Source: Malacoraja senta (lineage: Eukaryota). From it: a stretch of DNA of 64,000 nucleotides. The stretch is from NCBI GenBank assembly GCA_038087875.1, contig CM075990.1:4280001-4344000 (forward strand), in the 5' to 3' direction. Made by a program: the position numbers and the translations under genes. This document shows positions 23,552 to 57,686 of this stretch, in pieces. Each line of letters opens with the position of its first letter. Within the stretch, counting starts at the first letter, position 1. The notes below the pieces were generated by a model. That model had not been told where the DNA came from, made no database searches, and saw only the letters and a list, made by a program, of their open reading frames with translations.

Positions 23552-23824
23552 GGGCGGCACGGTGGCGCAGCGGTAGAGTGGCTCTCTTACAGCGCCAGAG
23601 ACCCGGGTGGTGTCTGTACGGAGTTTGTAAATTCTCCCTGTTACCGCGTGGGTTTTCTCTGGATGCTCCGCTTTCCACCCACATCCCAAAGACGTGCAGG
23701 TTTGTAGGTTAATTGGCTTTTGTAAATTGTCCCTGGTGTGTTGGATAGAACTAGTATGCAGGTGATCGATGGTCGGCACAGACTGTGGGCCGAAGGGCCT
23801 GTTTCCATCCCTGAACTAAACTAG
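23552..23824 (+). mobile_element. V-SINE/HE1-like SINE, + strand; others at ~26318-26622, 28440-28625, 42928-43215, 62312-62600
   Basis: ggcggcacggtggcgcagcggtagag head, V-domain, gggccgaagggcctgtttcc tail. Confidence 0.85.
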
Positions 23825-23878
23825 GGGGTGGGAGGTTGCAACCTTCACGTGGTCCGTCCTGTTTCAACTAATGCAATC
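23825..23878 (+). ncRNA. Minimal HDV-like (CPEB3-type) self-cleaving ribozyme motif
   Basis: P1 GGGGTGG/CCGTCCT, P2 GGTTGCA/TGCAATC, P3 ACC/GGT, L3 TTCACGT, GT after P1, vestigial P4, J4/2 CTAA. Confidence 0.75.
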
Positions 23879-23966
23879 AACTCGACGTGCACAAACAGAA
23901 GATCAAATAGAACAAGTTGTCCAACAACTTTAGGCTGTGCACGCCACACGGAAGAAGAAGAAGAAG
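23825..23966 (+). mobile_element. Short non-autonomous retroelement with a 5' HDV/CPEB3-like ribozyme and a (GAA)n tail
   Basis: TSD CTAAACTAG at 23816-23824 and 23967-23975; ribozyme fold at 23825-23878; GAAGAAGAAGAAGAAG tail. Confidence 0.8.
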
Positions 23967-24627
23967 CTAAACTAGCTGGTGAAGAGAGGAAGGCCAGTGT
24001 TAAATCATACAGATTTATCTGAAGACTATGTGTTGCTATGGAGAGTTCTGGAGATGTGAAGGTTGTTGTGGTTTTGGCCCACAGTCAGAGTGTAGTTTCG
24101 TTTCGTTTGGTTGAGTTTAGTTTATTGCTGGGTGCACCGAGGTGCAGTGAAAAGCTTGTTTTGTTGCAAGCTATCCAGTCAGTGATGTGGTGATCTTGCC
24201 TTGACTTCACTCCCCACAAACGTCCCTTGTTGTCTGGGCTTTCAGAGTTCCTTGTTAAAGCCAGCAAGAAGTCATGAGATGCAGAGAGAAGGCGAGCGAT
24301 ACGCCAGTGAAGGACAGGAAATGCCTTGGTTCATGAAAGCCCGGGGGAATAGTATATTCCTGGGTGGTGTCTGTGGTAAAGCGGTGGCCACGGAGACCGA
24401 TGGATGTGAGGTGGGTCGGAGGCGAAGGTTTTGATCAGGGGTGCCGTGCTATGGTGTTGCTGACTCGGGACGCTGGGCTGCAGCGTCCCACTGTGGACAA
24501 TGACCTGACCTGTGATAGTCAGTGTGATGTTTGGTGGACTGTGTGGGGTGGGAGGACCCGTTGCTCCTCCCGTGCAGCAGGTGGCGCTGCACAGGACAAA
24601 GGGAGATGTCTTGTATATCGTTTTTTC

Positions 24628-25015
24628 CAAAGATCCTATAGCGGAGTAAGAAGACCACTCCTTCTAAATGCAATGGGCTGACGTGTAGTACGCAACGGAG
24701 CGCAACGTGGGCCTTTTTTCATCCATTTCAGTAACCCGACCCGACTCGCAGTGTAATCAACGTTGCGGGGGAACAGTTTGTGTTAATAAGTTATAATTCT
24801 GAAAATGAGGAGAAGATTTTTCCCAAATAACTTTTATTTTTACGAGGATGTTTCCGTAACCGACTTCCGTCTCCGCACTAGTTATCTTTGGGATCTTTGG
24901 TGCGGAGACGGAAGCCGGTTACGGAAATGGGACCGAAAATTACCCATGAATCTGCTCATGACTGTACTACGTCCTTTTCGTCAAGTGGACTATCTTGCTC
25001 GCTATAGGATCTTTG
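24628..25015. mobile_element. hAT-type MITE (TIR CAAAGATCCTATAGCG)
   Basis: 8-bp TSD GTTTTTTC/GTTTATTC; internal long hairpin. Confidence 0.85.
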
Positions 25016-32030: not shown

Positions 32031-33283
32031 CTATAAGATCATCCCTCCCATTCCCACATTGACCTTTCTGTTCTGGGCCTCCTCCACTGTCAGAGTGAAG
32101 CCAAATGCAAAATGGAGGAACAGCACCTCATATTTCACTTGGGCAGCTCACACCCCAGCAGTATGAATGTTGGTTTCTCTAACTTAAAGTAAACCTTGCT
32201 TTCCCTCTGTCTCCATCCCTCCCCCACCCTAGTCACCGTACTAGCTTCAGTGTCTATGACCATTGTCAGCTCCACCTCCCTCGATCATGATTACATTTTG
32301 CATATCTTTCATTCATTTGTTCCACATCTCTCTATATCACCGTCTGTATCTCTCGTTTCCCTCTCCCCTGACCCTCAGTCTGAAGAAGGGCCTCGACCCG
32401 AAACGCCACCTATTCCTTCCCACTGGAGGTGCTGCCTGACCCGCTGAGTTACTGCAGCTCTTTGATTTTATCTTCTGTAGTCTTTGTAATACATGTGTTC
32501 TCTAATGTTCTTCTCGGAGTAGATCCGATGTCAAGCCACCCAAACCAAGGACTGCTTTAGAGGCGATTTGCATCACTCCTCTTTTCAACGCGTCCTATTT
32601 GCCCCAACGAACCCGACCTAGTACCATTCCCCTGGGAAAGGCCAAGATGAGGTACCATAACTCAGTGGAAACTAATCCAGCAAAGGGCCACATGTGCAGA
32701 GCATATACGGATAAACATGGATTAATAACTGGACAACAAGCCCTAGCAATAGTTGAACTGTTCATCCTGACTTCTGTCCGGAATGAATATTAGCGTGTGC
32801 TAAGACATTACTTGGTGTGTTGCAGATATATTGCAGTTTCTCAGGCAGAAGATGCACCTGTTCCTCTGTCTCTCCAGTCTTAGTTTAGTTTACAGGTACA
32901 GTGCGGAAACGGGTCCTTCAGTCCACCGAGTCCGCGCTGACCAGTGATCCCCATTCACTAGCACACTCCTACACACTAGGAACAATTTACAATTCTTACC
33001 AAAGCCAATTAACCTACACATGTGTTTGGAGTGTGGGAGGAAACCGGAAGGAATCAGCAGTAGTCAGGATCGAACCCGGGTCTCTGGTGCTGTTAGGCAG
33101 CAACTCTACCACTGTGCCATCATGCCGCCCAGTACAACACTGTTCCCACCTGCTGTCTCCAAGTGAGCTATGTTCTAATAGTTCAGAGCTGGCCTCTGAG
33201 CCAAGAGTTTGTGGATTCCAGTCCCATCCCGAGAGAACTGAGCACAAAATCCTGGCTGATCCACAAGTCCAGTACCAAAGTGT

Positions 33284-33470
33284 TTAAGAAGGAACTGCAG
33301 ATGCTGGAAAATCGAAGGTAGACAAAAGTGCTGGAGAAACTCAGCAGGTGCAGCAGCATCTATGGAGCGAAGGAAATAGGCAACGTTTCGGGTCGAAACG
33401 TTGCCTATTTCCTTCGCTCCATAGATGCTGCTGCACCCGCTGAGTTTCTCCAGCACTTTTGTCTACCTTC
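33284..33470. repeat. Fold-back Penelope-pLTR-derived element
   Basis: About 75-bp near-perfect inverted arms at 33314-33470; flanking repeat CAGTACCAAAGTGT. Confidence 0.8.
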
Positions 33471-35606
33471 AGTACCAAAGTGTGTTGTTGCAAGAGAGGT
33501 GGAACTTAGCTCACATCTGCCCTCTAGAGGCCATCAACGATCCCAAGACACCACTGAGCTAGTTGTTAGACTTTAGTCATAGAGTGATACAGCATGGAAT
33601 CAGGCCCTTCAGCCCAACTTGCCCACACCAGCCAACATGTCCCATCTATACTAGTCCCACCTGCCTGATTTTGGCCCATAGCCTTCTAAACCTATCCTAT
33701 CCATGTACCTGTCTAAATGTTTCTTAAACAGGTGATAGTCCCTGCCTTCCTACGTCAGCTAGTTCCATAATCCCACCACTTTTTGTATGAAAAAATTACT
33801 CCTCAGGTTCCGATTTTAGTCTTTAGACTCTAGAGATACAGCGGAGAGAAAGGCTCTTCAGCCCACCGAGTCCGTACCGACCATTGATCACCCCGTACAC
33901 TAGCACTATCCTACACACTAGGAACAATTTACAAATTTACTAAAGCCAATTAACCTACAAACCCGCACGTCTTTGGAGCGTGGGAGGAAACCGGAGCTCC
34001 TGGAGAAAACCCACGCAGGTCACGGGGAGAACGTACATGCCCCGTACAGACAAGCGCCTGTAGTCAGGATCGAACCCGGGTCTCTGGTGCTGTAAGGCAC
34101 CAACTCTCCCACTGTACCACCCGTTGTCCTCCATATCTTGGCCCAATAGTTAACCCACAGGCAACACCGTAATACTAGCGATCTGCCCCATAGCTCACTT
34201 TTTGTTGGAAGTCGGCGAGCTTTATACACACACGAGTGGCTGCACAGTTGCTGGAAAGATGACGTGGCATCTCCTGAGTTTGCAGAAGGCGCCAAAGAAA
34301 AGCAGTGTTGAGATGTGAGAGGGCAGAGTGGGATAAGTGGTCCTTTCATTCTTCCTGTGCTGTGAGGAGCCTGCACGACCCCCCCCCCCCCTCCTTTCAT
34401 GAGCGTGGTGTTTAGGGGTGGTGGTGGAGGGAGAGATACTGGGGCCTTACAGGGACTGCACTCAGTCACCTGATGGTCAGACACCCCTTGCTCTTGCTCA
34501 CCACGAGCAGGCTCTCTGGGTTTGGAACTGGGACGTTGGCCTCGCAGCAGGTAGTGCTGCTGCCTCGCAGCGCCAGTGACTCAGGGTCAATCCCAAATGA
34601 CATGAAGTCAGAAGCGCTCAGCTGCGAAGTGTTCAGTGAGTTATATCTGCAACACCAGACGGTTGTAAATAACACATTTATTACGATAGGATAAAACGTT
34701 ATTCATCCCTGGAGGGAAATTTGTCTGCCAACAGTCATAACACACAATAAGGTACATGAAAACTTGAAATTAAAATTAAATTAAAAGTGAATTGAGCAAT
34801 ATCTGACCTGGGGTGATAATGTTAATAGGTTTTTTAGAATGAATCTTTGCTTGGAGTTGGGTCTGCCACGGTAAACATTCCATGTATACCCTTCCCATGT
34901 GGACAGCATGAAGAAAGCTTATGCCTCCCCCACCCTCTTCACCTCACTCATGCCTAATATGCAGCTGTGACGCCCAGTTACCAACTAGCTTCACTTCTTC
35001 CACTGTGTGTGTGGGGTTTCTCTGGGCTTTGTTTCAACGCGATGACAATTTATAAAGAATTTAAAAAATAATAATAATCGCACTTTTCTTAATCGCCGAT
35101 TGCACTAATAAATGTGGAATCTGCTTTTACTGCAACTGATGAATCTCCAGGGAGTGGTGAAGCAGTCTCTCTGAGCGCTACTTTCAATAGGCAGTCAGAT
35201 GCTCACCTTTCCCCATGTTCTTTCTCCAATATCATGTTTCTCATTATTAAGGTAGAATTTCCAGGTCTGTGCTTGAATCTAAGCCCAATGCAAGACCATC
35301 TCTTCCGGGGGTTGGCATTGTGTTGGGCCACCTCTGGGACAGAGTTCCCTGTCAGAAGAGTAGACACAATGTGTAGGAAGGAACTGCAGATGCTGGTTTT
35401 AACCCAAGATAGACTGGAGTAACTCAGCGGGACAGGCCCGAAAAAGTCACCCATTCCTTCTCTCCAGAGATGCTGCCTGTCCCGCTGGGTTACTCCAGCT
35501 TTTTGTGTCTGTCTTCTTTTTAGAAGAGTAGACACTTTGCTTTGACCAGGGTAGTGGGCATTTCCAGTTAGGGTCAGTTAGGGTGGTTGACATGGTCAGA
35601 GAGATA

Positions 35607-35966
35607 CAGCTTCACCACCGATTTTCCAGCAACTGGTGGTCCGGCCCCACTTTAATCCAGACACAATCTAGCCCACCCCCCCCCCCCCCCCCGAAAATGT
35701 GCCACCTAAACCGGGTGAGGCGGCCGGTCTAGACCTCGTTGGGACTTCCGCGGCCGATCGGCCGGTCAAATTTACCGCAGGGTTCTGGAAATCCGGCGGG
35801 GCCGGAGCCGGCAGCTCCGTTCCCATTGCCGACTTCCGGGGCTGACTTTGCGGGTCAGTATCTCGGCCCCCCGAGGCCGTGACCTCTGTTGGTCTGGCAA
35901 AACGGAGAATCCACAAAGGCTGTGGAACCAAGCACACCAAGAACTGGAGAATCAGTGGTGGACCTG
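35607..35966. mobile_element. Possible Tc1/mariner-Tigger-like MITE
   Basis: Imperfect TIR CAGCTTCACCACCGATTTTCCAG / CTGGAGAATCAGTGGTGGACCTG; TA on the left. Confidence 0.5.
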
Positions 35967-38706
35967 TGATCACATTTGTGCCACAGTATTTAGAAATTTT
36001 AACATGTTGTCTCCATGTTATTAAATTGACATGCAGATTCACCCTCAGCACAGGCAGACAAGTAGGTTATGATGCTTATGGAAAGCAAGGGTACAAGTCC
36101 AAAAATGAATGTCCCCGCTTACATTTCAGAAACTGTGGTGCTCTACGCTGTAAGCATAGAATTGAGTATGATCTGATGAGATTCTTGATTAGTACGGGTG
36201 TCAGGGCAAAGACAGGAGTGTGGGGATGAGAGGGAAGGATTGATCAGCCATGATTGAATGGCGGATTCGACTTGATGGGCCGAATGGCCTAATTCTGCTC
36301 CTATCACTGATGACCTTATCTATGACCTAGGAATAAGGAGTAAGCCATTTAGAACGGAGACGAGGAAACACTTTTTCTCACAGAGAGTGGTGAGTCTGTG
36401 GAATTCTCTGCCTCAGAAGGCGGTGGAGGCAGGTTCTCTGGATGCTTTCAACAGAGAGCTAGATAGGGCTCTTAAAGATAGCGCAGTCAGGGGATATGGG
36501 GAGAAGGCAGGTACGGGGTACTGATTGGGGATGATCAGCCATGATCACATTGAATGGCAGTGCTGGCTCAAAGGGCCGAATGGCCTACTCCTGCACCTAT
36601 TGTCTATTGACATTGGGGCAAATTTTGTATAATTTTGCTCCCAGCAGAAAATCTAGAAATATGAATCCAAGTTGGAGATGGAACTTGCTGCCGTAGCTCT
36701 GGGAAGTGCATGTTGTTGCTCAGAGCCTTGGCTTGTAAAGCTCCAAGCACTAATCTCCAAGCTCCAATCTTGGACACAGTTCATGTGCAATCCCGCTGAC
36801 CCGGTGCTGCCTTCACCCGCGGCAAATTGTTGGGGACGGATGCACATTTTGCTCTGGCCAAATAAAGTCAGACCTTAACGGAAAGCAATATTTCATTTCT
36901 TTGTTCTGTATTCTCTTGCTATTCCTTAAAATATTTTGAAAGTATTTGAACAAGTGAAACCAACAGGCTTTTTGGAAGTCAGCAGTCTCTGCTCTGCAGG
37001 AGAAACTGCACTGTGTGTTATATTTGCCGAGGGAGTTGAGATTAACGTTATTTTGTCTCCTTTTCAACGTAGTTGGCAGCAGACGAACTCTTCCTCACTT
37101 AACTACCCGGCTGAATCTGCTCACGTCAATAGAACTAGGTACTTTCCTACTGATTTGTGTCTAAGTCATTACAAGTTGGTAACAGAGCACTAATGCAGTT
37201 ACCCACAAGGGTAATATTAACCGGTTAACAGAGGCACCGAGTATTCACGTTGCATGGATACGTGCATTGCTCCTGCTTCATTCACAGCGCAGGCTCATTT
37301 CTGCATTTAAACAAGGCTAACATCAAGTCTACTCCACCCTCACATCAGTCTGAAGAAGGGTTTCGATCCGAAATGTTGCCTATTTCCTTCGCTCCATAGA
37401 TGCTGCCTCACCCGCTGAGTTTCTCCAGCATTTTTGTCTACCATCAAGTCTACTCCGCCATTCAATCATGGCTGATCTATCTCTCCCTCTCAACCCCATT
37501 CTCCTGCCTTCTCCCCATAACCCCTGACACCCGTACTAATCAAGAATCTGTCAATCTCTGCCTTAAAAATATCTATTGACTTGACCTCCACAGCCTTCTG
37601 TGGCAACTAATTCCACAGATTCACCACCCACTGAGTAAAGAAATTCTTCTTCATCTCCTTTCTAAAGGTATATCCTTATATTCTGAGGATATGGCATCTG
37701 GTCCTAGACTCTCCCACTAGTGGAAACATCCTGTCCACATTCACTCTATTTCACAATTCAGTAAGTTTCAATGAAGTCCCCCTCACCCTTGTAAACTCCA
37801 GCAAGGACATGCCCAGTGCCGTCAAATGTTCATCATATGTTAACCCAATCATCCCTGGTTTGCTAATCTCTTTCTCTCCCAACCTTGTGGGTTTTAGATT
37901 TGTAGACTCCAAATCAGACCCAACTGCACTGAAACCCAGTATATGGCCTTTCTTTGCTAACCTACAAAAGAGCAACATAGCTTGGAAGACATAACTCTCT
38001 AAAAAAGAGGTGGACACAACTTGCATGCTGATGTAACTGACAAATCCATAACTAATATGCGGCTGTTTCTTAAATTATCAACGCAGTCCCCCTACCTGGC
38101 TCTGGGGCACAGGACCTGCTGACTGAGACTTTTTAAGTCACATCTGTGTGTCACAAGGAAAGTGGAAGGAAAGGACGCTAAGTGATGGAGTAACTTGGCG
38201 CCTCAGGCAGCATCTCTGGAGAATATGGACAGGTGGCGTTTCGAGTCGGGTCCCTTCTTCGACATGGGGAGAGTTGATGTGGAGAGGATGTTTCCACTAG
38301 TGGGAGAGTCTCGGACCAGAGGCCAAAGCCTCAGAATGTAAGGACATACCTTTAGAAAGATGAGGAATTTCTTGAGTCAGAGGGTGGTGAATCTGTGCAA
38401 TTCATTGCCACAGATGGCTGTGAAGGCCAAGTCAATGGATATTTTTTAAGGCAGAGATTGACAGATTCCTGATTAATTTGGGTGTCAGGGGTTATGGGGA
38501 GAAGGCAGGAGAATGGGGTTGGGAGGGAAAGATAGATCAGCCATGATTGAATGGCGGAGTAGACTTGATGGACTAATTCTGCTCCTATAACCTATGAACT
38601 TATGACATGAAGAAGGGTCCCGACCCAAAATGTAATCTATCCATGTTCTCCGGAGATGCTCCAGAAACGCTGAGTTCCTCTCGCACTTTGTTTTCTTTTG
38701 TGCAAA

Positions 38707-38795
38707 GCAACATCTGCAGCAACATCTGCAGCAACATCTGCAGCAACATCTGCAGCAACATCTGCAGCAACATCTGCAGCAACATCTGCAGCAAC
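38707..38795. repeat. 12-bp tandem repeat (GCAACATCTGCA) x7; duplicated at ~51557
   Basis: Direct reading. Confidence 0.92.
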
Positions 38796-39933
38796 CTGTC
38801 TCTACGAGGTGCAAGGAACGGTGAGCACGCGATATTCACGGGGAACGGTCCGTTTTGTTTCTGGTTTCCTTTTCTCTGTGCAGGAGCTTGATAAAGCCAC
38901 TCCTGCATTGGAAAGTGAAGGTACATAAGTACAAAGTGCTCTCTTAATGCCCGAGGATTGATAAGGGCAGAGCTGTGGACGTTACTGATATGGACTTGAA
39001 ACAAAGCGTTTGACAAGATTGTGGTCATCTGGAAGGTAAGGGAACTATGGGGAGTGCTAGCTAATTGGATACCTAGTTGGCTTGATGGTAAGAAGCAGAA
39101 GTTGATGGCGGCAGGTTCGTTATCGGACGAGAGGCCCTGATCAGTGTTGTGTCTCTGGGAACGATGTTGGGCTCATTGTTGTTTGTCATTTATATAAACG
39201 ATTTGGATGCATCAAATAGTGAAAGGCCTGGATAGAGTGGATGTGGAGAGGATGTCTCCATTATTGGGAGAGTCTAGGACCAGAGGCCACATCCTCAGAA
39301 TAACAGGACGTACCTTTAGAAATTGAGATGAGGAGGAATTTCTTTAGTCAGAGGGTGGTGAATCTGTGGAATTCTTTGCCACAGAAGGCTGTGGAGGCAA
39401 AGTCATTGGATATATTTAAGGCAGAGATTGATAGATTCTTGATTAGTACGGGTGTCAGGGGTTATGGTGAGAAAGAAGGAGAATGGGGTTAGGAGGGAGA
39501 GATAGATCAGCCATGATTGACTGGCAGAGTAGACTTGATAGTTGGAATGGTCTAATTCTGCTCCTATCACTTGTGACCTGATGAACTTTGTTATAGACTA
39601 CTTTGAAGAAGTTCTCCCACGGGAGTTCTGCAACACCCTCTCTCGTTGTTCCCCCTCTGTGATTCCTCCTGCTCCAGCTCCACCACCACGTTTTATCATT
39701 GTCTGCTTTGATCAGTCGTTTTCACACCTTACATTCTCTTTGTAAACCCTTCCATACCTCTAGTTTCCTGCTCCCCTGACTCTCAGTCTGAAGAAGGGAC
39801 TCGACCTGAAACGTCACCCATTCCCTCTCTCCAGAGATGCTGCCTGTCCCAGCATTTTGAGTCTATCTTTGTTATAGATGTCTCTTGCTGAAAGGTCCTC
39901 GTGGGCATGAGGCGGGGAGAGTGTGAGTGGAAC

Positions 39934-40453
39934 TAGAGTTGCCAACTTTCTCTCTCCCAAATAAGGGACAAAAGGTCAAAATACGGGACAAATACCCGAC
40001 GGGAATTTGATTACCGACTCGGCGGTGGCTGGATGAATGATGAGTTGGCCCGGGTGCTGGACTGCACACAAAGCCCAGCCGGCGGGCCAGCTGAGGGGTT
40101 TTGGCCCGCGTGATGTCACGCGCAAAGTTCGGCGCCCCATCCAACTCATGAACCGATGATCGGCCATGAGAAGGAGGGGTGGTGGTGTCGGCGGTAAGCG
40201 AAGGTGCGAAGGTCGGACAGCTGGCCGGGCTGCCGACCGACGGGGCCACGGGCGAGGTGCTGCTGCTGCACTCCATGGGCTGCACAACGTCGGGACGGGT
40301 GAGGCGGGGCCGGACGCGGCGCTCCGACCCGACAGTCCCCTCGACCCGAGTAGTAGCAGTCAAATACGGGACAAGGGCGGTCTCGTTTGGGACAAACCAA
40401 TTTAACCCCAAAAAAGGGATGTCCCGGCTAATACAGGACTGTTGGCAACCCTA
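39934..40453. mobile_element. hAT MITE with TAGRGTTGCCAAC TIRs (duplicated at ~52784-53303)
   Basis: 8-bp TSD AGTGGAAC on both sides; subterminal ACGGGACA repeats. Confidence 0.82.
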
Positions 40454-41198
40454 AGTGGAACGCAGGATGTTTAATGCCAGTTCCGCATCACCATTACACT
40501 GGCTATTGCCCTTGTTGCCTGACCCGCCACTCCCACCAAAGGTACACTGGACGACAGCCAGTGGCAAAAACTTGGGGGGATAAAAAAGAGAGGAAAATGT
40601 TTTTAGTTTAGTTTATTTATTGTCACATGTACAGTGAAAAGCTTTTGTTGCGTGCTAAAGGGTCTTGACCCGAAACGTCGCCCATTCCTTCTCTCCAGAG
40701 ATGCTGCCTGTCCAGAGTCCTGAGTTACTCCAGCATTTTGTGTCTGTCAGCGGAAAGACCGTACATGATTACCAGCGAGCCATCCACAGTGTGCAGAGAG
40801 ATTTGAAAGAGTGGAGCGATTGTAGTGGGTGATTACCGATGACCAACACCCAAAGAGTCCCTTGGCTTGGGCACCATCTTGGATCGAGCAAAGCCAAACC
40901 AAGCTCCTCACACTGGGCTGGGGCCACCGGAGCCTGATTGTGATTAACCGTTTAAACTTGCTGCTGCCATAATCATAGACAACTAATGCTTCTGTACTTT
41001 ACCATCGAGCGTGGGTGAGAGTTGGCGGTTCATTGCACTTCCAGGATCCGGCTCTCTGGCTCCCCCACCTGATCGGAGGTCTGCGCCATTGACGATGAGG
41101 AGGACTCTGCAGTTCGCTACCTGTTGACCAACCTGCCTCCACTGCCCGCATATTCCCCACTCACTCTCCACCCTGTCTTTTTTCTCTTTCCCTCGCAG

Positions 41199-41323
41199 TG
41201 ACGGCTTCAGAAGCGGCGGCATGGCGAGCAGCCCCCCGGCCCCACCACCCCCAGCACCTGCCTCCAAACCCAACCTGGTCAGCACGGCCAGCATCAGACC
41301 TGCTCCCTATCAGCAGCCTAAAG
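41199..41323 (+). CDS. LDB3: LDB3 exon (equivalent to human exon 11), 125 bp, phase 2/1
   Basis: ttccctcgcag|TGACGG...CCTAAAG|gtaaca; translates DGFRSGGMASSPPAPPPPAPASKPNLVSTASIRPAPYQQPK (cf. human KPRVVTTASIRPSVYQP). Confidence 0.88.
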
Positions 41324-41836
41324 GTAACAACCGGAGCAGCCACTCCCACTGCAGGAGCAGGTTCCCAGAGAGGAGCATGTGATGGGAGGCTCCCAGAGGG
41401 AAGGAAGAAATCGGGGGGTTCCCAGATAGGAGGAAGTGATGGGAGTGATTCATTGCCACAGACGGTTGCGGAGGCCAAGTCAATGGATATATTTAAGGCA
41501 GAGATAGATAGATTCTTGATTAGTGCGGGTGTCAAGGGTTACGGGGAGAAGGCAGGAGAATGGGGTAAGGAGAAAGAGATAGATCAGCCATGATTGAATG
41601 ACAGCGTAGACTTGATGGGCCGAATGGCCTAATTCTGCTCATAATTTATGAACATTTCCGCATTTAGTGGGAGATTGTTCAGTTTCATTTCGCTGGCAGA
41701 CGTCTGTGAACTCCAGCCTCCGGCTAGACTTTTTATATCGATGGGAGGGAGTTTAAAAAACTTGCAAGAGTTTGGCGGTGGGAGTTTGTGGAGTTTGCAC
41801 TTTGCAATCTGATTGCGTGTGTGTTGTATTGCTCAG

Positions 41837-42203
41837 CCCCCCCTGCTCAGGTGCACAGCAGCACGGCTGCATTCAACGTGGCCAAGCCGGCTGCATCGCT
41901 GGAAGCCGTGCAGCCCCCGGCAACGGGCAGCCGCCCGCCGTGGGTGACAGACGACACTTTTGCCCAGAAGTTTCAGGCGGGGAAAAGCACCACCACGCTG
42001 ACCAAACACATCCAGCCGCTGCCTCACTCTGCTCCGCCCAAGCCGCCGGTGTTGGCGCCGCCCCAGCCTCCTGCCCGTGAACCCGCTCACGGCCCGCTGC
42101 CCGGCCAGACCGCCGGGGGCATCCGCAACCTGGTGCAGAGAGCAGAGCGCTTCCCCGCCAGCAGCCGCACCCCACTGTGCGGGCAGTGCAACAGCATCAT
42201 CAG
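41837..42203 (+). CDS. LDB3: LDB3 exon (equivalent to human exon 12) ending at the start of LIM1, 367 bp, phase 1/2
   Basis: gtattgctcag|CCCCCC...ATCATCAG|gtacgc; contains [22 protein letters not shown] and [23 protein letters not shown]. Confidence 0.93.
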
Positions 42204-42222
42204 GTACGCTCTCGGTTCCACC

Positions 42223-42631
42223 CAAAGATCCTATAGCGAGCAAGATAGATCACTCGACGAAAAAGACGTACTACGGTCATGGGCAGATTCATGGGTAATT
42301 TAAGGCCCCATTTCCGTAACCGGCTTCCGTCTCCGCACCAAAGATCCCATAGGATAATAGTGTGGAGACGGGAGACGGAAGCCGGTTACGGAAACATCCT
42401 CGTAAAAATAAAAGTTATTTGGTAAAAATCTTCTCATTTTCAGAATTTTAATTTATTAACACAAACTGTTCCCCCACAACGTTGATTACACTGCGAGTCG
42501 GGTCGGGTCGGGTTGGATCCGGTTACTGAAATGGATGAAAAAAAGGCCCACGTTCCGCTCCGTTGCGTACTACACGTCAGCCCATTGCATTTAGCAGGAG
42601 TGGTCTATCTTGCTCCGCTATTGGATCTTTG
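42223..42631. mobile_element. hAT-type MITE, same family (duplicate at 55076-55484)
   Basis: Perfect 8-bp TSD GTTCCACC. Confidence 0.88.
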
Positions 42632-43554
42632 GTTCCACCAGGACCGGCCATGGGCGTGGGCGCTGATTGACTTGTAGTGCCACCAGGTGGAACTATGAGG
42701 AAGTGCGGCGCTACGGTAGAGTTGCTGCCTTATTGCGCCACAGACCCGGAATCAAATCCTGTTCTTTTGCTGCAGACAAAAACTTGTCGCTAATCCAAGT
42801 TGGTTTTGTTGGTGGACAGCACGGTGGCGCAGCGGTATTCTTGCTGCCTTCCTGCGCCACAGACCCGGGCTCGATGCTGACTCTGTTTTCCTGCAGTCAC
42901 TGTTTATCCAAGCTGCTTTAATTTGTGGGCAGCACAGTGGTGCAGCTGGTAGAGTTGCTGCCTCACAGCACCTGAGATCCACGCTCCATCCAATCCTCAG
43001 GTACTGTCTGTGTGGAGTTTGCACGTTCTCCATGTGACCGTGTGGGTTTCCTCTGGGTGTTCCGGTTACCCCCCACACTCCAAAGACATGCTGGTTTGTA
43101 GGTTAATTTTCTTCGGTAAATTTGTAAATTGTTCTTAGCATGCAGGATAGTGTTAGTGTATGGGGATCACTGATCGGCGTGGACTAGGTGGGCCGATGAG
43201 CCTGTTTCCGTGTTGAACGGGAGCGGAACCAGAGCACCCGGAGAAAACCCATGCGGTCACGAAGAGAATGTACAAACTCCATACAGACAGCATCCGTAGT
43301 CCGGATCGAACCTGGGTCTCTGGTGCTGTAAGGCAGCAACTCTTCCGCTGCACCACACTGAGTTGGGAAGTTGTGTTGTGAATCTGACCTCTCCTGCCCT
43401 CTACAGTTTCTATATGATTCAGGATCCAAGGAGAGTTTAAAATTCAAATCTCAAAAGCCAAGTGGAAATGTTGGCACCAATCCTATAGCAGAGGAAAATA
43501 GTATTCTGGAATGATGACCAAACTAATTGTTGGAACAAATTTAAAGAGTTCAGC

Positions 43555-43693
43555 CTCTTCGTCTTGCGTATGGCGTGCACTGCCTAAGGTTGTAGAACAA
43601 CTTGTTCTATTTGATCTTATTTGATTGTGCACGCCGGGTTGATTGCATTTGTTGAAACAGGGCGGACCACGTGAAGGTTGCATCTCCCACCCC
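43555..43693 (-). mobile_element. Second copy of the ribozyme-headed element (ribozyme at 43641-43693); duplicated at 56408-56546
   Basis: Reverse complement reads GGGGTGG GA GATGCA ACC TTCACGT GGT CCGCCCT GT TTCAA CAAA TGCAATC; flanking direct repeat AAGAGTT(cagc/aggc). Confidence 0.78.
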
Positions 43694-44652
43694 AAGAGTT
43701 AGGCAATTTCTTGTTGGGAAAGCTGTTGCAGGATTTAGTTGTAGAACACAGAGTGAAATGATAGTTGGTTTGGACGGATGTGGTAGTTTAGTTCAGAGAT
43801 ACAGCATGGAAACAGGCCCTATGGCCTACCTTGTCAGCACCGATCAGCGATCCCCATACACTAGCACTATCCTACACACTTGGGACAATTTACAACCAAA
43901 GCCAATTAACCTACAAACCTGTACATCTTTGAAGTGTGGAAGGAAACTAGAGCACCCGGGGAGAACCCACGCGGTCACAGGGAGAAATTACAAACTCCAT
44001 ACAGACAGCACCCGTAGTCAGGGTCGAACCCGGCTCTCTGGCACTGTAAGGTAGCAACTACCGCTGCACCACCGTGCCTCTCACTAGTTGAAGAGCAGTG
44101 TTGCCGACTTCCGGAGGTGCCGCCGTGGCAGATGCCTTCAGGAGGTGCCGCTGAGAAGCTGAGGCCGGAGCCTCATGGCCCGGGCCTCGCGGGTCAGAGC
44201 CTGGGCATCGCGGGTCGGAGGTGGAGCCTCGCGGGTCGACAAAGCCTGTGGCCAACGGCCCCTGGGTCTGTGGAGCCCGTGACGGCCTGGGTCGGCGCCA
44301 CGGAGGCGTCCGGACTGGACCCGGCGGCGATACTGGAGAGATCGGTGCGGCGGGCGATGATGGCATATGAGGACGGACCACGTGGAAGTGAGGACGCCGC
44401 TGGCGGGGGATGGAACAAAGGAGGACCCGGGGGGGGGGGGGTGAGAACAAAGGGGGAACTGGCGCGGGAGGGGGGATGGGTGTGGAAGAATATGTAACTA
44501 TGTAAGCGCCCATTATAGGCGACTATTTGCATACCTTGGGTACGCAAGCAAAACATTTCACTGTGACTTGTCACATGTGGCAATAAAGTATTCAATTCTC
44601 TTCCACAAGTACCACATGTCACTTTACAAGACGTCTCTCCTTCTGTTTCCAG

Positions 44653-44833
44653 AGGTCCTTTCCTTGTGGCTTTGGGCCGCTCCTGGCACCCGGAGGAGTT
44701 TAACTGCACTTACTGCAAGGTCTCCCTGGTTGACACTGGCTTTGTGGAGGAGCAGAACAATATTTACTGTGAGAAATGCTACGAGCAGTTCTTCGCTCCA
44801 AATTGTGCCAAATGCAATGCAAAGATCATGGGG
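44653..44833 (+). CDS. LDB3: LDB3 LIM1/LIM2-start exon, 181 bp, phase 2/0
   Basis: ttctgtttccag|AGGTCCTTTC...ATGGGG|gtaagt; translates [60 protein letters not shown]. Confidence 0.96.
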
Positions 44834-45157
44834 GTAAGTGAAGGCCTGTAGCCAACAGTACTGCCAGCAGACAGGTAGGTGGCAGCACTGATCTAGCAGA
44901 GGAACTAACCATCCACTCATCCATAGGATGCCGTTCTGAAATACACTGTGATTCGCTTGCAGTAGAAGCTAGATAGTTTATATCACATGCATTTTTAGAA
45001 GTAAAAGAGAATAATTTATGTACTCTTCATGTAGGGACTCAAGATAATACTTACAAGAATGATCCCAGAAATAATTGGGTTAACATATGATGAGCTTTTG
45101 ACGGCACTGGGCCTGGTTTAGTTTAAACTCGCTCTAGTTTAGAAGGATGAGGGGGAC

Positions 45158-45357: not shown

Positions 45358-48300
45358 GTCTTTGTAATACATGTGTTTCTCTAATGTTCTTCTCGGAGTA
45401 GATCCGATGTCAAGCCACCCAAACCAAGGACTGCTTTAGAGGCGATTTGCATCACTCCTCTTTTCAACGCGTCCTATTTGCCCCAACGAACCCGACCTAG
45501 TACCATTCCCCTGGGAAAGGCCAAGATGAGGTACCATAACTCAGTGGAAACTAATCCAGCAAAGGGCCACATGTGCAGAGCATATACGGATAAACATGGA
45601 TTAATAACTGGACAACAAGCCCTAGCAATAGTTGAACTGTTCATCCTGACTTCTGTCCGGAATGAATATTAGCGTGTGCTAAGACATTACTTGGTGTGTT
45701 GCAGATATATTACAGTTTTTCAGGCAGAAGATGCACCTGTTCCTCTGTCTCTCCAGTCTTAGTTTAGTTTACAGGTACAGTGCGGAAACGGGTCCTTCAG
45801 TCCACCGAGTCCGCGCTGACCAGTGATCCCCATTCACTAGCACACTCCTACACACTAGGAACAATTTACACATCTTACCAAAGCCAATTAACCTACACGC
45901 GTGTTTGGAGTGTGGGAGGAAACCGGAAGGAATCAGCAGTAGTCAGGATCGAACCCGGGTCTCTGGTGCTGTTAGGCAGCATCTCTACCACTGTGCCATC
46001 ATGCCGCCCAGTACAACACTGTTCCCACCTGCTGCCTCCAAGTGAGCTATGTTCTAATAGTTCAGAGCTGGCCTCTGAGCCAAGAGTTTGTGGATTCCAG
46101 CCCCATCCCGAGAGAACTGAGCACAAAATCCTGGCTGATCCACAAGTCCAGTACCAAAGAAGGAACTGCAGATGCTGGAAAATCGAAGGTAGACAAAAGT
46201 GCTGGAGAAACTCAGCGGGTGCAGCAGCATCTATGGAGCGAAGGAAATAAGCAACGTTTCGGCTCGAAACATTGCCTATTTCCTTCGTTCCATAGATGCT
46301 GCTGCACCCGCTGAGTTTCTCCAGCACTTTTGTCTACCTTCAGTACCAAAGTGTGTTGTTGCAAGAGAGGTGGAACTTAGCTCACATCTGCCCTCTAGAG
46401 GCCATCGACGATCCCAAGACACCACTGAGCTAGTTGTTAGACTTTAGTCATAGAGTGATACAGCATGGAATCAGGCCCTTCAGCCCAACTTGCCCACACC
46501 AGCCAACATGTCCCATCTATACTAGTCCCACCTGCCTGATTTTGGCCCATAGCCTTCTAAACCTATCCTATCCATGTACCTGTCTAAATGTTTCTTAAAC
46601 AGGTGATAGTCCCTGCCTTTACTTCCTACCTCAGCTAGTTCCATAATCCCACCACTCTTTGTATGAAGAAATTACTCCTCAGGTTCCGATTTTAGTCTTT
46701 AGACTCTAGATATATAGCGGAGAGAAAGGCTCTTCGGCCCACCGATTCCGTACCGACCATTGATCACCCCGTACACTAGCACTCCTACACACTAGGAACA
46801 ATTTACAAATTTACTGAAGCCAATTAACCTACAAACCAGCACGTCTTTGGAGCGTGGGAGGAAACCGGAGCCCCTTGAGAAAACCCACGCAGGTCACGGG
46901 GAGAACGTACATGCCCCGTACAGACAAGCGCCTGTAGTCAGGATCGAACCCGGGTCTCTGGTGCTGTAAGGCACCAACTCTCCCACTGTACCACCCGTTG
47001 TCCTCCATATCTTGGCCCAATAGTTAACCCACAGGCAACACCTTAATACTAGCGATCTGCCCCATAGCTCACTTTTTGTTGGAAGTCGGCAAGCTTTATA
47101 CACACACGAGTGGCTGCACAGTTGCTGGAAAGATGACGTGGCATCTCCTGAGTTTGCAGAAGGCGCCAAAGAAAAGCAGTGTTGAGATGTGAGAGGGCAG
47201 AGTGGGATAAGTGGTCCTTTCATTCTTCCTGTGCTGTGAGGAGCCTGCACGCCCCCCCCCCCCCCCTCCTTTCATGAGCGTGGTGTTCAGGGGTGGTGGT
47301 GGAGGGAGAGATACTGGGGCCTGACAGGGACTGCACTCAGTCACCTGATGGTCAGACACCCCTTGCTCTTGCTCACCACGAACTGGGACGTTGGCCTCAC
47401 AGCAGGTAGTGCTGCTGCCTCGCAGCGCCAGTGACTCAGGGTCAATCCCAAATGACATGAAGTCAGAAGCTCTCAGCTGCGAAGTGTTCAGTGAGTTATA
47501 TCTGCAACACCAGACGGTTGTAAATAACACATTTATTACGATAGGATAAAATGTTATTCATCCCTGGAGGGAAATTTGTCTGCCAACAGTCATAACACAC
47601 AATAAGGTACATGATAACTTGAAATTAAAATTAAATTAAAAGTGAATTGAGCAATATCTGACCTGGGGTGATAATGTTAATAGGTTTTTTAGAATGAATC
47701 TTTGCTTGGAGTTGGGTCTGCCACGATAAACTTTCCATGTATACCCTTCCCATGTGGACAGCATGAAGAAAGCTTATGCCTCCCCCACCCTCTTCACCAC
47801 ACTCATGCCTAATATGCAGCTGTGACGCCCAGTTACCAACTAGCTTCACTTCTTCCACTGTGTGTGTGGGGTTTCTCTGGGCTTTGTTTCAACGCGATGA
47901 CAATTTATAAAGAATTAAAAAAATAATAATAATCGCACTTTTCTTAATCGGCGATTGCACTAATAAATGTGGAATCCGCTTTTACTGCAACTGATGAATC
48001 TCCAGGGAGTGGTGAAGCAGTCTCTCTAAGCGCTACTTTCAATAGGCAGTCAGATGCTCACCTTTCCCCATGTTCTTTCTCCAATATCATGTTTCTCATT
48101 ATTAAGGTAGAATTTCCAGGTCTGTGCTTGAATCTAAGCCAATGCAAGACCATCTCTTCCGGGGGTTGGCATTGTGTTGGGCCACCGCTGGGACAGAGTT
48201 CCCTGTCAGAAGAGTAGACACAATGTGTAGGAAGGAACTGCAGATGCTGGTTTTAACCCAAGATAGACTGGAGTAACTCAGCGGGACAGGCCCGAAAAAG

Positions 48301-51300
48301 TCACCCATTCCTTCTCTCCAGAGATGCTGCCTGTCCCGCTGGGTTACTCCAGCTTTTTGTGTCTGTCTTCTTTTTAGAAGAGTAGACACTTTGCTTTGAC
48401 CAGGGTAGTGGGCATTTCCAGTTAGGGTCAGTTAGGGTGGTTGACATGGTCAGAGAGATACAGCTTCACCACCGATTTTCCAGCAACTGGTGGTCCGGCC
48501 CCACTTTAATCCAGACACAATCTAGCCCACCCCCCCCCCCCCGAAAATGTGCCACCTAAACCGGGTGAGGTGGCCGGTCTAGACCTCGTTGGGACTTCCG
48601 CGGCCGATCGGCCGGTCAAATTTACCGCAGGGTTCTGGAAATCCGGCGGGGCCGGAGCCGGCAGCTCCGTTCCCATTGCCGACTTCCGGGGCTGACTTTG
48701 CGGGTCAGTATCTCGGCCCCCCGAGGCCGTGACCTCTGTTGGTCTGGCAAAACGGAGAATCCACAAAGGCTGTGGAACCAAGCACACCAAGAACTGGAGA
48801 ATCAGTGGTGGACCTGTGATCACATTTGTGCCACAGTATTTAGAAATTTTAACATGTTGTCTCCATGTTATTAAATTGACATGCAGATTCACCCTCAGCA
48901 CAGGCAGACAAGTAGGTTATGATGCTTATGGAAAGCAAGGGTACAAGTCCAAAAATGAATGTCCCCGCTTACATTTCAGAAACTGTGGTGCTCTACGCTG
49001 TAAGCATAGAATTGAGTATGATCTGATGAGATTCTTGATTAGTACGGGTGTCAGGGCAAAGACAGGAGTGTGGGGATGAGAGGGAAGGATTGATCAGCCA
49101 TGATTGAATGGCGGATTCGACTTGATGGGCCGAATGGCCTAATTCTGCTCCTATCACTGATGACCTTATCTATGACCTAGGAATAAGGAGTAAGCCATTT
49201 AGAACGGAGACGAGGAAACACTTTTTCTCACAGAGAGTGGTGAGTCTGTGGAATTCTCTGCCTCAGAAGGCGGTGGAGGCAGGTTCTCTGGATGCTTTCA
49301 ACAGAGAGCTAGATAGGGCTCTTAAAGATAGCGCAGTCAGGGGATATGGGGAGAAGGCAGGTACGGGGTACTGATTGGGGATGATCAGCCATGATCACAT
49401 TGAATGGCAGTGCTGGCTCAAAGGGCCGAATGGCCTACTCCTGCACCTATTGTCTATTGACATTGGGGCAAATTTTGTATAATTTTGCTCCCAGCAGAAA
49501 ATCTAGAAATATGAATCCAAGTTGGAGATGGAACTTGCTGCCGTAGCTCTGGGAAGTGCATGTTGTTGCTCAGAGCCTTGGCTTGTAAAGCTCCAAGCAC
49601 TAATCTCCAAGCTCCAATCTTGGACACAGTTCATGTGCAATCCCGCTGACCCGGTGCTGCCTTCACCCGCGGCAAATTGTTGGGGACGGATGCACATTTT
49701 GCTCTGGCCAAATAAAGTCAGACCTTAACGGAAAGCAATATTTCATTTCTTTGTTCTGTATTCTCTTGCTATTCCTTAAAATATTTTGAAAGTATTTGAA
49801 CAAGTGAAACCAACAGGCTTTTTGGAAGTCAGCAGTCTCTGCTCTGCAGGAGAAACTGCACTGTGTGTTATATTTGCCGAGGGAGTTGAGATTAACGTTA
49901 TTTTGTCTCCTTTTCAACGTAGTTGGCAGCAGACGAACTCTTCCTCACTTAACTACCCGGCTGAATCTGCTCACGTCAATAGAACTAGGTACTTTCCTAC
50001 TGATTTGTGTCTAAGTCATTACAAGTTGGTAACAGAGCACTAATGCAGTTACCCACAAGGGTAATATTAACCGGTTAACAGAGGCACCGAGTATTCACGT
50101 TGCATGGATACGTGCATTGCTCCTGCTTCATTCACAGCGCAGGCTCATTTCTGCATTTAAACAAGGCTAACATCAAGTCTACTCCACCCTCACATCAGTC
50201 TGAAGAAGGGTTTCGATCCGAAATGTTGCCTATTTCCTTCGCTCCATAGATGCTGCCTCACCCGCTGAGTTTCTCCAGCATTTTTGTCTACCATCAAGTC
50301 TACTCCGCCATTCAATCATGGCTGATCTATCTCTCCCTCTCAACCCCATTCTCCTGCCTTCTCCCCATAACCCCTGACACCCGTACTAATCAAGAATCTG
50401 TCAATCTCTGCCTTAAAAATATCTATTGACTTGACCTCCACAGCCTTCTGTGGCAACTAATTCCACAGATTCACCACCCACTGAGTAAAGAAATTCTTCT
50501 TCATCTCCTTTCTAAAGGTATATCCTTATATTCTGAGGATATGGCATCTGGTCCTAGACTCTCCCACTAGTGGAAACATCCTGTCCACATTCACTCTATT
50601 TCACAATTCAGTAAGTTTCAATGAAGTCCCCCTCACCCTTGTAAACTCCAGCAAGGACATGCCCAGTGCCGTCAAATGTTCATCATATGTTAACCCAATC
50701 ATCCCTGGTTTGCTAATCTCTTTCTCTCCCAACCTTGTGGGTTTTAGATTTGTAGACTCCAAATCAGACCCAACTGCACTGAAACCCAGTATATGGCCTT
50801 TCTTTGCTAACCTACAAAAGAGCAACATAGCTTGGAAGACATAACTCTCTAAAAAAGAGGTGGACACAACTTGCATGCTGATGTAACTGACAAATCCATA
50901 ACTAATATGCGGCTGTTTCTTAAATTATCAACGCAGTCCCCCTACCTGGCTCTGGGGCACAGGACCTGCTGACTGAGACTTTTTAAGTCACATCTGTGTG
51001 TCACAAGGAAAGTGGAAGGAAAGGACGCTAAGTGATGGAGTAACTTGGCGCCTCAGGCAGCATCTCTGGAGAATATGGACAGGTGGCGTTTCGAGTCGGG
51101 TCCCTTCTTCGACATGGGGAGAGTTGATGTGGAGAGGATGTTTCCACTAGTGGGAGAGTCTCGGACCAGAGGCCAAAGCCTCAGAATGTAAGGACATACC
51201 TTTAGAAAGATGAGGAATTTCTTGAGTCAGAGGGTGGTGAATCTGTGCAATTCATTGCCACAGATGGCTGTGAAGGCCAAGTCAATGGATATTTTTTAAG

Positions 51301-54051
51301 GCAGAGATTGACAGATTCCTGATTAATTTGGGTGTCAGGGGTTATGGGGAGAAGGCAGGAGAATGGGGTTGGGAGGGAAAGATAGATCAGCCATGATTGA
51401 ATGGCGGAGTAGACTTGATGGACTAATTCTGCTCCTATAACCTATGAACTTATGACATGAAGAAGGGTCCCGACCCAAAATGTAATCTATCCATGTTCTC
51501 CGGAGATGCTCCAGAAACGCTGAGTTCCTCTCGCACTTTGTTTTCTTTTGTGCAAAGCAACATCTGCAGCAACATCTGCAGCAACATCTGCAGCAACATC
51601 TGCAGCAACATCTGCAGCAACATCTGCAGCAACATCTGCAGCAACCTGTCTCTACGAGGTGCAAGGAACGGTGAGCACGCGATATTCACGGGGAACGGTC
51701 CGTTTTGTTTCTGGTTTCCTTTTCTCTGTGCAGGAGCTTGGTAAAGCCACTCCTGCATTGGAAAGTGAAGGTACATAAGTACAAAGTGCTCTCTTAATGC
51801 CCGAGGATTGATAAGGGCAGAGCTGTGGACGTTACTGATATGGACTTGAAACAAAGCGTTTGACAAGATTGTGGTCATCTGGAAGGTAAGGGAACTATGG
51901 GGAGTGCTAGCTAATTGGATACCTAGTTGGCTTGATGGTAAGAAGCAGAAGTTGATGGCGGCAGGTTCGTTATCGGACGAGAGGCCCTGATCAGTGTTGT
52001 GTCTCTGGGAACGATGTTGGGCTCATTGTTGTTTGTCATTTATATAAACGATTTGGATGCATCAAATAGTGAAAGGCCTGGATAGAGTGGATGTGGAGAG
52101 GATGTCTCCATTATTGGGAGAGTCTAGGACCAGAGGCCACATCCTCAGAATAACAGGACGTACCTTTAGAAATTGAGATGAGGAGGAATTTCTTTAGTCA
52201 GAGGGTGGTGAATCTGTGGAATTCTTTGCCACAGAAGGCTGTGGAGGCAAAGTCATTGGATATATTTAAGGCAGAGATTGATAGATTCTTGATTAGTACG
52301 GGTGTCAGGGGTTATGGTGAGAAAGAAGGAGAATGGGGTTAGGAGGGAGAGATAGATCAGCCATGATTGACTGGCAGAGTAGACTTGATAGTTGGAATGG
52401 TCTAATTCTGCTCCTATCACTTGTGACCTGATGAACTTTGTTATAGACTACTTTGAAGAAGTTCTCCCACGGGAGTTCTGCAACACCCTCTCTCGTTGTT
52501 CCCCCTCTGTGATTCCTCCTGCTCCAGCTCCACCACCACGTTTTATCATTGTCTGCTTTGATCAGTCGTTTTCACACCTTACATTCTCTTTGTAAACCCT
52601 TCCATACCTCTAGTTTCCTGCTCCCCTGACTCTCAGTCTGAAGAAGGGACTCGACCTGAAACGTCATCCATTCCCTCTCTCCAGAGATGCTGCCTGTCCC
52701 AGCATTTTGAGTCTATCTTTGTTATAGATGTCTCTTGCTGAAAGGTCCTCGTGGGCATGAGGCGGGGAGAGTGTGAGTGGAACTAGAGTTGCCAACTTTC
52801 TCTCTCCCAAATAAGGGACAAAAGGTCAAAATACGGGACAAATACCCGACGGGAATTTGATTACCGACTCGGCGGTGGCTGGATGAATGATGAGTTGGCC
52901 CGGGTGCTGGACTGCACACAAAGCCCAGCCGGCGGGCCAGCTGAGGGGTTTTGGCCCGCGTGATGTCACGCGCAAAGTTCGGCGCCCCATCCAACTCATG
53001 AACCGATGATCGGCCATGAGAAGGAGGGGTGGTGGTGTCGGCGGTAAGCGAAGGTGCGAAGGTCGGACAGCTGGCCGGGCTGCCGACCGACGGGGCCACG
53101 GGCGAGGTGCTGCTGCTGCACTCCATGGGCTGCACAACGTCGGGACGGGTGAGGCGGGGCCGGACGCGGCGCTCCGACCCGACAGTCCCCTCGACCCGAG
53201 TAGTAGCAGTCAAATACGGGACAAGGGCGGTCTCGTTTGGGACAAACCAATTTAACCCCAAAAAAGGGATGTCCCGGCTAATACAGGACTGTTGGCAACC
53301 CTAAGTGGAACGCAGGATGTTTAATGCCAGTTCCGCATCACCATTACACTGGCTATTGCCCTTGTTGCCTGACCCGCCACTCCCACCAAAGGTACACTGG
53401 ACGACAGCCAGTGGCAAAAACTTGGGGGGATAAAAAAAGAGAGGAAAATGTTTTTAGTTTAGTTTATTTATTGTCACATGTACAGTGAAAAGCTTTTGTT
53501 GCGTGCTAAAGGGTCTTGACCCGAAACGTCGCCCATTCCTTCTCTCCAGAGATGCTGCCTGTCCAGAGTCCTGAGTTACTCCAGCATTTTGTGTCTGTCA
53601 GCGGAAAGACCGTACATGATTACCAGCGAGCCATCCACAGTGTGCAGAGAGATTTGAAAGAGTGGAGCGATTGTAGTGGGTGATTACCGATGACCAACAC
53701 CCAAAGAGTCCCTTGGCTTGGGCACCATCTTGGATCGAGCAAAGCCAAACCAAGCTCCTCACACTGGGCTGGGGCCACCGGAGCCTGATTGTGATTAACC
53801 GTTTAAACCTTGCTGCTGCCATAATCATAGACAACTAATGCTTCTGTACTTTACCATCGAGCGTGGGTGAGAGTTGGCGGTTCATTGCACTTCCAGGATC
53901 CGGCTCTCTGGCTCCCCCACCTGATCGGAGGTCTGCGCCATTGACGATGAGGAGGACTCTGCAGTTCGCTACCTGTTGACCAACCTGCCTCCACTGCCCG
54001 CATATTCCCCCACTCACTCTCCACCCTGTCTTTTTTCTCTTTCCCTCGCAG

Positions 54052-54176
54052 TGACGGCTTCAGAAGCGGCGGCATGGCGAGCAGCCCCCCGGCCCCACCA
54101 CCCCCAGCACCTGCCTCCAAACCCAACCTGGTCAGCACGGCCAGCATCAGACCTGCTCCCTATCAGCAGCCTAAAG
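54052..54176 (+). CDS. LDB3: Duplicate copy of LDB3 exon 41199-41323 (within probable false duplication)
   Basis: Same sequence at offset +12853. Confidence 0.6.
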
Positions 54177-57505: not shown

Positions 57506-57686
57506 AGGTCCTTTCCTTGTGGCTTTGGGCCGCTCCTGGCACCCGGAGGAGTTTAACTGCACTTACTGCAAGGTCTCCCTGGTTGACACTGGCTTTGTGG
57601 AGGAGCAGAACAATATTTACTGTGAGAAATGCTACGAGCAGTTCTTCGCTCCAAATTGTGCCAAATGCAATGCAAAGATCATGGGG
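57506..57686 (+). CDS. LDB3: Duplicate copy of the LDB3 LIM1 exon 44653-44833
   Basis: Offset +12853; same translation. Confidence 0.6.

Follow-up and report, generated by a model that had tools for sequence, protein, structure and literature searches.

Positions 23825-23966 of the DNA analysed here (the window, a 64,000-nucleotide stretch of Malacoraja senta contig CM075990.1) hold a 142-bp retroposon headed by an HDV-like ribozyme fold in the register of the mammalian CPEB3 ribozyme. That this is a real feature is well supported, and its partner in retroposition is probably a Vingi-type LINE. As the best explanation, in which we place considerable if not full confidence, the element is a frame-less, non-autonomous derivative of a Vingi-type (Ingi-related) LINE, consisting of a ribozyme head and a structured tail, which would be released by the ribozyme and copied in trans.

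Architecture of the element and its surroundings

The features of the element, of its surroundings and of related loci elsewhere in the genome are compiled in Table 1. The element is flanked by a 9-bp target-site duplication, CTAAACTAG, the upstream copy of which directly abuts the first base of the element (G1). The coordinates, the duplication at G1 and the (GAA)n end given in the initial annotation are thus borne out by the sequence.

Table 1. Features of the ribozyme-headed element in the window (first sixteen lines) and of related loci in the genome
Feature	Position	Strand	Remark
5' target-site duplication	23816-23824	+	within the tail of the host tRNA-derived SINE
54-nt HDV-like ribozyme fold, CPEB3 register	23825-23878	+	predicted activity
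Ribozyme P1; J1/2	23825-31/23854-60; 23832-33	+	
Ribozyme P2; P3	23834-40/23872-78; 23841-43/23851-53	+	
Ribozyme L3	23844-50	+	P1.1 is C22-G37
5-nt loop replacing P4	23863-67	+	
J4/2	23868-71	+	predicted catalytic C at 23868
Predicted cleavage site	immediately 5' of 23825	+	
3' body	23879-23950	+	long hairpin 23884-93/23936-45 around short hairpin 23914-19/23925-30
(GAA)n tail	23951-23966	+	
3' target-site duplication	23967-23975	+	
Host SINE, tRNA-derived	23553-23824	+	very high-copy as judged by contig depth; element inserted into its tail
Second family copy	43556-43693	-	older subfamily; one-base deletion in P2
Third family copy	56409-56546	-	duplicate of the 43556 copy; within the 12.8-kb tandem duplication listed below
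Inverted repeat, 29 bp, near-perfect	24851-24927		within repeated segment 24627-25016; possibly a small DNA transposon
Tandem duplication, 12.8 kb	32480-45157; 45358-58140		repeats one host-gene exon and one element copy
Vingi-like LINE, about 3.1 kb, CPEB3 head over cut-off (up to 64.2 bits)	C8:934641-937698	-	
Same	C1:217550485-217553585	+	
Same	C21:8957196-8958189	-	
CPEB3-core short repeat	C13:8596080-8596144		no P4
Same	C13:7158706-7158770		no P4
Same	C5034:20980-21044		no P4

Downstream of the ribozyme, the loop of the short hairpin in the 3' body differs among copies, and the folding z of the 3' body is -1.5 in the window copy and -2.3 in a more typical copy (L066). We infer that the 3' body may serve as a recognition signal for the reverse transcriptase. 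The SINE copy into which the element has inserted, presumably an HE1-like one, has a perfect A box and is without a segment after 23608 that is present in other copies (loose ends at 23608) and probably corresponds to its B box. This copy is therefore unlikely to have driven Pol III read-through into the element. The tandem duplication listed in Table 1 could be a real duplication or an assembly artefact.

A dispersed family with 5' ends at the predicted cleavage site

In the 1.94-Gb genome an exact 18-mer from the core of the element is matched 5,025 times (control, 0), and a 21-mer around the catalytic position has 6,345 matches with C and 423 with another base at this position, giving a family of at least 6,768 copies. 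The first 34.4 Mb of C1 yield a listing of 75 tail matches, and an exact core match accompanies 40 of them, a share from which we estimate about 9,000-9,400 copies.

Furthermore, 108 loci were taken, 88 of which are distinct. A target-site duplication scoring at least 7 was found in 73 of 86 distinct copies as compared to none of 86 shifted controls. These duplications are 8-15 bp long. Where a call was made (82 copies), the end of the upstream duplication lies no more than one base from G1 in 69. The head plays no part in the selection of samples that are anchored on the element's 3' end. In one such sample 29 of 30 best matches to the 3' 72 nt start at G1 (a set that includes duplicates; the remaining match has a rearranged, doubled head), and so do 17 of 18 tail matches without an exact core, these being 18 of the 35 listed matches of this kind; in the eighteenth, the head is displaced by an insertion. 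Copy number, clustering of the 5' ends at G1 and target-site duplications, the points by which the initial annotation was to be checked, hence agree with its reading as a ribozyme-headed, non-autonomous retroposon that starts at the predicted cleavage site. With dispersed copies bearing duplications and a simple-repeat tail, and with no coding frame, the element is a target-primed, non-autonomous non-LTR retroposon. The label SINE that it had been given is better replaced, as such elements are non-autonomous LINEs by the usage in the available part of PMC4494074. At the loci L013, L073, L086, L100 and L109-L113, element copies are nested in older copies or split by later insertions.

The family comprises an older subfamily with CGAA in J4/2, 5.2% from consensus, and a younger one with CTAA, 2.5% from consensus. 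Inside the ribozyme the two consensus sequences differ only at the unpaired positions 8 and 45, and both retain every catalytic-core position. Contigs of the organisms A, B, F and G, whose alignments are dominated by the host SINE, all show deep coverage of the element, so that the family is common to related species. Viral contigs do not contain the element core, and a Vingi-like locus could not be confirmed in them.

Of the 6,768 matches, 423 no longer have the catalytic C, mainly through C-to-T change at CpG: 76 of 100 listed non-C matches read TG (about 320 of the 423), and 9 of 100 listed C matches read CA (about 570 of the 6,345, with a wide error). As the rate of C loss is not clearly below that of the adjacent G-to-A change, selection on the catalytic C is not apparent in inserted copies.

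The ribozyme fold

In the window copy all 18 pairs of P1, P2, P3 and P1.1 can form, the last being a single Watson-Crick pair, and U20, G25 and C44-N-A-A are present. All parts of the ribozyme that had been recognized at the outset are in place, namely P1 with its G1-U wobble, P2, P3, a nearly absent P4 and a J4/2 of the form C-N-A-A. The L3 loop, then described as identical to that of CPEB3, does agree with L3 of the Rfam CPEB3 consensus, and the helix lengths of the 54-nt, P4-less head are exactly those of CPEB3. A fixed-register HDV descriptor matches solely at 23825 on both strands of the 64-kb window and has no match in 30 shuffled windows.

Comparison with the Rfam models, which had been proposed as a check, was less clear-cut: at E<=10 over 2 kb around the window copy no HDV-family match is listed, and a 101-nt stretch of copy L066 scores 19.2 bits (E 0.0033) with the CPEB3 model RF00622, whose cut-off is 35. 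The covariation expected by the initial annotation was likewise found only in part. Within the family, none exceeds that of shuffles in 80 aligned copies, which we attribute to the youth of the family; this alignment leaves out 8 of the 88 distinct copies (large rearrangements or near-duplicates) and has one window copy added. Between copy L066 and three distinct CPEB3-class ribozymes from metagenomes, on the other hand, both sides have changed in 9, 10 and 10 of the 18 pairs, and 0, 0 and 1 pairs are broken. Over 34 pairs (18 of the ribozyme and 16 of the 3' body), pairing is kept in 95.2% of 2,714 cells of the 80-copy alignment, as compared to 31-40% in slid controls. P4 measures 17-51 nt in five CPEB3-class metagenome loci versus 5 nt in the element. 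As judged by sequence comparison, the fold of the element appears to be homologous to those of the CPEB3 and Vingi ribozymes.

All core bases together with all pairs are kept in 13 of 27 core-selected and in 4 of 13 core-negative sampled copies. The nested-fold z of the head alone, 0 to +1.5, is unremarkable, as expected for a pseudoknot.

CPEB3-class ribozymes and Vingi-like LINEs in the genome

The supplement of PMC5786205 (Kojima 2018) prints Vingi 5' ends from gharial, another crocodilian, sea urchin and amphioxus, and the head of the element has the same ribozyme type and register as these. Compared by eye with the Rfam CPEB3 consensus, the 5' end of the gharial element Vingi-2_Gav agrees at 48 of the 50 bases compared, with 36 of 38 identical between G2 and the beginning of P4 and 12 of 12 beyond it. 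The printed Vingi-2_Gav, Vingi-4_Crp, Vingi-2_SPur, Vingi-1_BF and SINE2-1_AMi are all near-identical to this consensus, a likeness that goes unremarked in the available text of PMC5786205.

A motif built from the printed Vingi 5' ends has 108 matches in the genome (control, 3). With RF00622, named 'Mammalian CPEB3 ribozyme', at least 60 genome matches are listed, 39 of them over the cut-off and the best at 64.2 bits (59 of 102,231 candidates scored); none of 14 control genomes gave a match over the cut-off. A Vingi-like endonuclease frame lies at most 1 kb downstream on the same strand in 10 of these 39 matches, and in 11 of all 60 listed (coordinates compared by hand; chance expectation about 0.002). 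In seven ribozyme-endonuclease pairs the gap is 117-120 nt, and eight pairs also have a C-terminal match about 3.1 kb away (about 3.8 kb in one case). One Vingi-like LINE under a CPEB3-class head has an unbroken frame of 1014 aa. Two frames, of 1014 and 1008 aa, are open and match Vingi-like proteins at both termini, and thus represent a candidate partner with an intact frame in the genome.

The CPEB3-class ribozymes of the five metagenome loci score over the Rfam cut-off at 51-66.5 bits and have the helix lengths of the element. At one of these loci (L115) the ribozyme precedes an endonuclease frame by about 80 nt. This frame has 113 longer relatives, many of them endonuclease and reverse transcriptase proteins of about 1000 aa from sea urchin, amphioxus, insects and fish, and no RNase H match was found in the seven relatives scanned. 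According to the available part of PMC13708176, the layout of Vingi is that of such proteins of about 1000 aa without RNase H. The label Vingi as used here reflects this protein layout and the heads printed in the supplement, and was assigned by no tool.

Several further observations were made in these searches. At 16 further places the CPEB3 core is present at 22 of 23 bases; those scored span 59-65 nt like the match of the element and have no adjoining endonuclease match, so that these repeats may form a short sister family. Among two-mismatch matches, the most frequent form is a third head variant (e.g. C3304:19066-19088 and C2:54943566-54943588); in two or more places, endonuclease frames follow it at a greater distance. 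At C2:72572002, C3:51717376 and C2:156807995, a CPEB3-class head has a Vingi-like C-terminus close by on the other strand, an arrangement like that of 5'-inverted insertions. The metagenome contigs L116 (4852-4941) and L117 (4974-5063) contain a CPEB3-class ribozyme of 66.5 bits with a compensatory change in P1 and no long frame directly downstream. Vingi-like sequences in prokaryotic genome bins (L119-L121, P0092) are probably animal contamination.

The copying LINE and alternative explanations

A Vingi-type LINE is the more likely partner of the element than an RTE. Transcription of a source copy would come about by read-through from outside or start at a promoter that overlaps the head, and the ribozyme would then cut just 5' of G1 and leave a folded 5' end. 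In trans, the endonuclease/reverse transcriptase of a Vingi would bind the 3' hairpin together with the (GAA)n tail, nick the DNA and copy the RNA into new sites, leaving duplications of the length seen.

The initial annotation had proposed a LINE with a matching tail. Among the places listed, no LINE with the element's own head or tail was found. The exact tail motif is present beside none of six Vingi-like C-termini in the listed part of C1, and the tail of the element is no more similar to the Vingi-like 3' end of L121, the one such 3' end read, than shuffles are (384/1000). For the 100 listed out of 219 heads whose continuation is altered, there is no endonuclease match nearby; most have small indels, and by design this test misses about four in ten parents. 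Two head-tail pairs 3.35 kb apart on C1 were considered as a parent LINE and rejected, as both are element copies split by later insertions, in one case by what we take to be a CR1-like LINE.

According to the available part of PMC5786205, bipartite elements of this kind are reported to arise from RTE, Ingi, Vingi and R2 alone. Copying of the ribozyme-headed element by an RTE, the guess of the initial annotation, or by another endonuclease-type LINE after an exchange of tails is in our view unlikely. HDV-like ribozymes and bipartite derivatives are both known from RTE elements, exchanges of tails have been described (PMC5786205, available part), and the abundant Vingi-like family is without the exact tail motif in all six testable copies. 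However, the head matches the Vingi/CPEB3 register exactly, it is of the type printed for Vingi 5' ends, and in this genome it is on Vingi-like LINEs that CPEB3-class heads sit. In addition, there is an anecdotal likeness at the 3' ends: a comparable short motif, with a microsatellite or a run of purines after it, closes both the Vingi-derived SINE2-1_AMi and the Vingi-like L121. The head might instead be kept as an internal promoter or protective fold, with the sharp 5' ends marking transcription starts and cleavage being weak or dispensable. The head of L1Tc/NARTc, which is homologous to that of the element, does serve as promoter and ribozyme both, and some SIDER heads are inactive despite adequate predicted folding (both PMC4035085, available part); moreover, P1.1 is a single pair, P4 is absent, and the genome-wide comparison at the catalytic C does not discriminate. 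Yet the consensus sequences of both subfamilies keep the whole catalytic core and differ at tolerant positions only, HDV-like ribozymes without P4 exist (PMC10879173, available part), and a weak P1.1 does not preclude fast cleavage (PMC13635239, available part). We therefore consider this explanation quite unlikely. A conventional Pol III SINE whose head is merely ribozyme-like would account for the SINE-like length and copy number, and one-mismatch resemblances to a B box are present at nt 51 or 77-79. This reading is already largely refuted and hardly deserves credence: the best A box of the element has at least three mismatches, against the perfect one of the host SINE, and neither the absence of descriptor matches in the shuffles nor the 9-10 compensatory changes relative to CPEB3-class ribozymes fit a chance resemblance. 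The initial annotation was accordingly right that a tRNA-type A/B-box head is missing, and ARAGORN finds no tRNA in the window.

The window copy lies, in sense orientation, in an intron of a LIM-domain gene (Pfam LIM match at 59869), which we take to be LDB3; an exon near 1350 presumably encodes its ZM motif. Here it might cut the intron, as the initial annotation had suggested, and could even regulate the host gene by cutting its pre-mRNA, as proposed for CPEB3. The orientation and the 18 pairs still able to form are compatible with this. On the other hand, the copy is young, and its P1 and P3 together reach -6.8 kcal/mol, whereas two typical copies reach -12.4 kcal/mol. The predicted ensemble is dominated by a competing hairpin at nt 8-21, and when 60 nt of flank are included in a nested-fold model, pairing of P1 has a probability near zero, the upstream flank being predicted to pair with the 5' strand of P1. 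According to these models the window copy is probably a poor cutter, and as it looks weakened, cutting of the host intron is doubtful. Furthermore, in organism F the alignment of one contig begins exactly at the 3' duplication, a weak hint of an empty site in that organism. Regulation of the host gene by this copy thus appears very unlikely.

Known relatives and the origin of the CPEB3 ribozyme

Ribozyme-headed, non-autonomous LINE derivatives are known from NARTc, RIME and SIDER of the L1Tc-ingi clade and from R2 SIDE, which are likewise short and frame-less and start with an HDV-like ribozyme (PMC4035085, PMC5786205, PMC6765202, PMC8256844; available parts). The element differs from these in its vertebrate host, its length of about 145 nt, its P4-less head in the CPEB3 register, its (GAA)n tail and its thousands of dispersed copies. 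Deletion derivatives of Vingi, such as those of Vingi-1_EE, are known as well (PMC5786205, PMC4494074; available parts), and so are the Vingi-containing SINEs SINE2-1_ACar and SINE2-1_AMi. The Vingi 5' ends printed in the supplement of Kojima 2018 share ribozyme register, L3, GU and CGAA with the element, whereas the element has no tRNA head before the ribozyme, different but paired stems and no P4. Minimal HDV-like and theta ribozymes resemble it in being without P4, and in the available part of PMC10879173 the minimal HDV-like ones are nearly 99% confined to bacteriophages, the eukaryotes surveyed being human, mouse and protists; unlike these ribozymes, the element's heads a vertebrate retroposon and has no tRNA link. 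With the mammalian CPEB3 ribozyme (RF00622), finally, the element shares the lengths of P1, J1/2, P2, P3 and L3, the L3 sequence and the single-pair P1.1, and its older subfamily also the CGAA. It differs at 10 of 17 stem pairs (by eye, Rfam consensus), in the absence of P4 and in a score well short of the Rfam cut-off, and it is multi-copy and mobile whereas CPEB3 is one conserved intronic locus.

In literature searches at the level of titles and abstracts, we found no published account of the element family or of a link between CPEB3 and Vingi. The family may already carry a name in Repbase or Dfam, and the likeliest places for a prior mention are Webb 2009, Ruminski 2011, Webb and Luptak 2011 and Kojima 2011. 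What we regard as new is the presence of a minimal ribozyme at thousands of copies in a vertebrate, together with evidence on where the CPEB3 ribozyme comes from.

No self-cleaving RNA in a human gene has been studied more closely than the CPEB3 ribozyme, which has also been linked to memory. On the strength of the Vingi-like LINE heads scoring up to 64 bits, the short repeats with a core of 22/23 and the 48/50 agreement of the gharial Vingi-2 in the printed supplement, we think it probable that the mammalian CPEB3 ribozyme is the domesticated 5' end of a Vingi-type retroposon, and that the same process is under way in the genome studied here. As part of this, the element would scatter thousands of minimal ribozymes of CPEB3 build through introns.

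The element is among the smallest ribozyme-headed retroposons and brings a P4-less HDV-like ribozyme by the thousands into a vertebrate genome. With a 54-nt head and a tail of about 90 nt, it is also a candidate minimal template for Vingi-based RNA-only gene insertion, which is in development (PMC13708176, available part). The available part of PMC8233481 (2021) reports that the CPEB3 ribozyme was not found outside mammals and that an outgroup was lacking. If the CPEB3 ribozyme does derive from a Vingi, Vingi-type elements would be this outgroup. With the same ribozyme heading Vingi-type LINEs, the origin of CPEB3 becomes directly testable, and natural sequence variants are supplied for this purpose.
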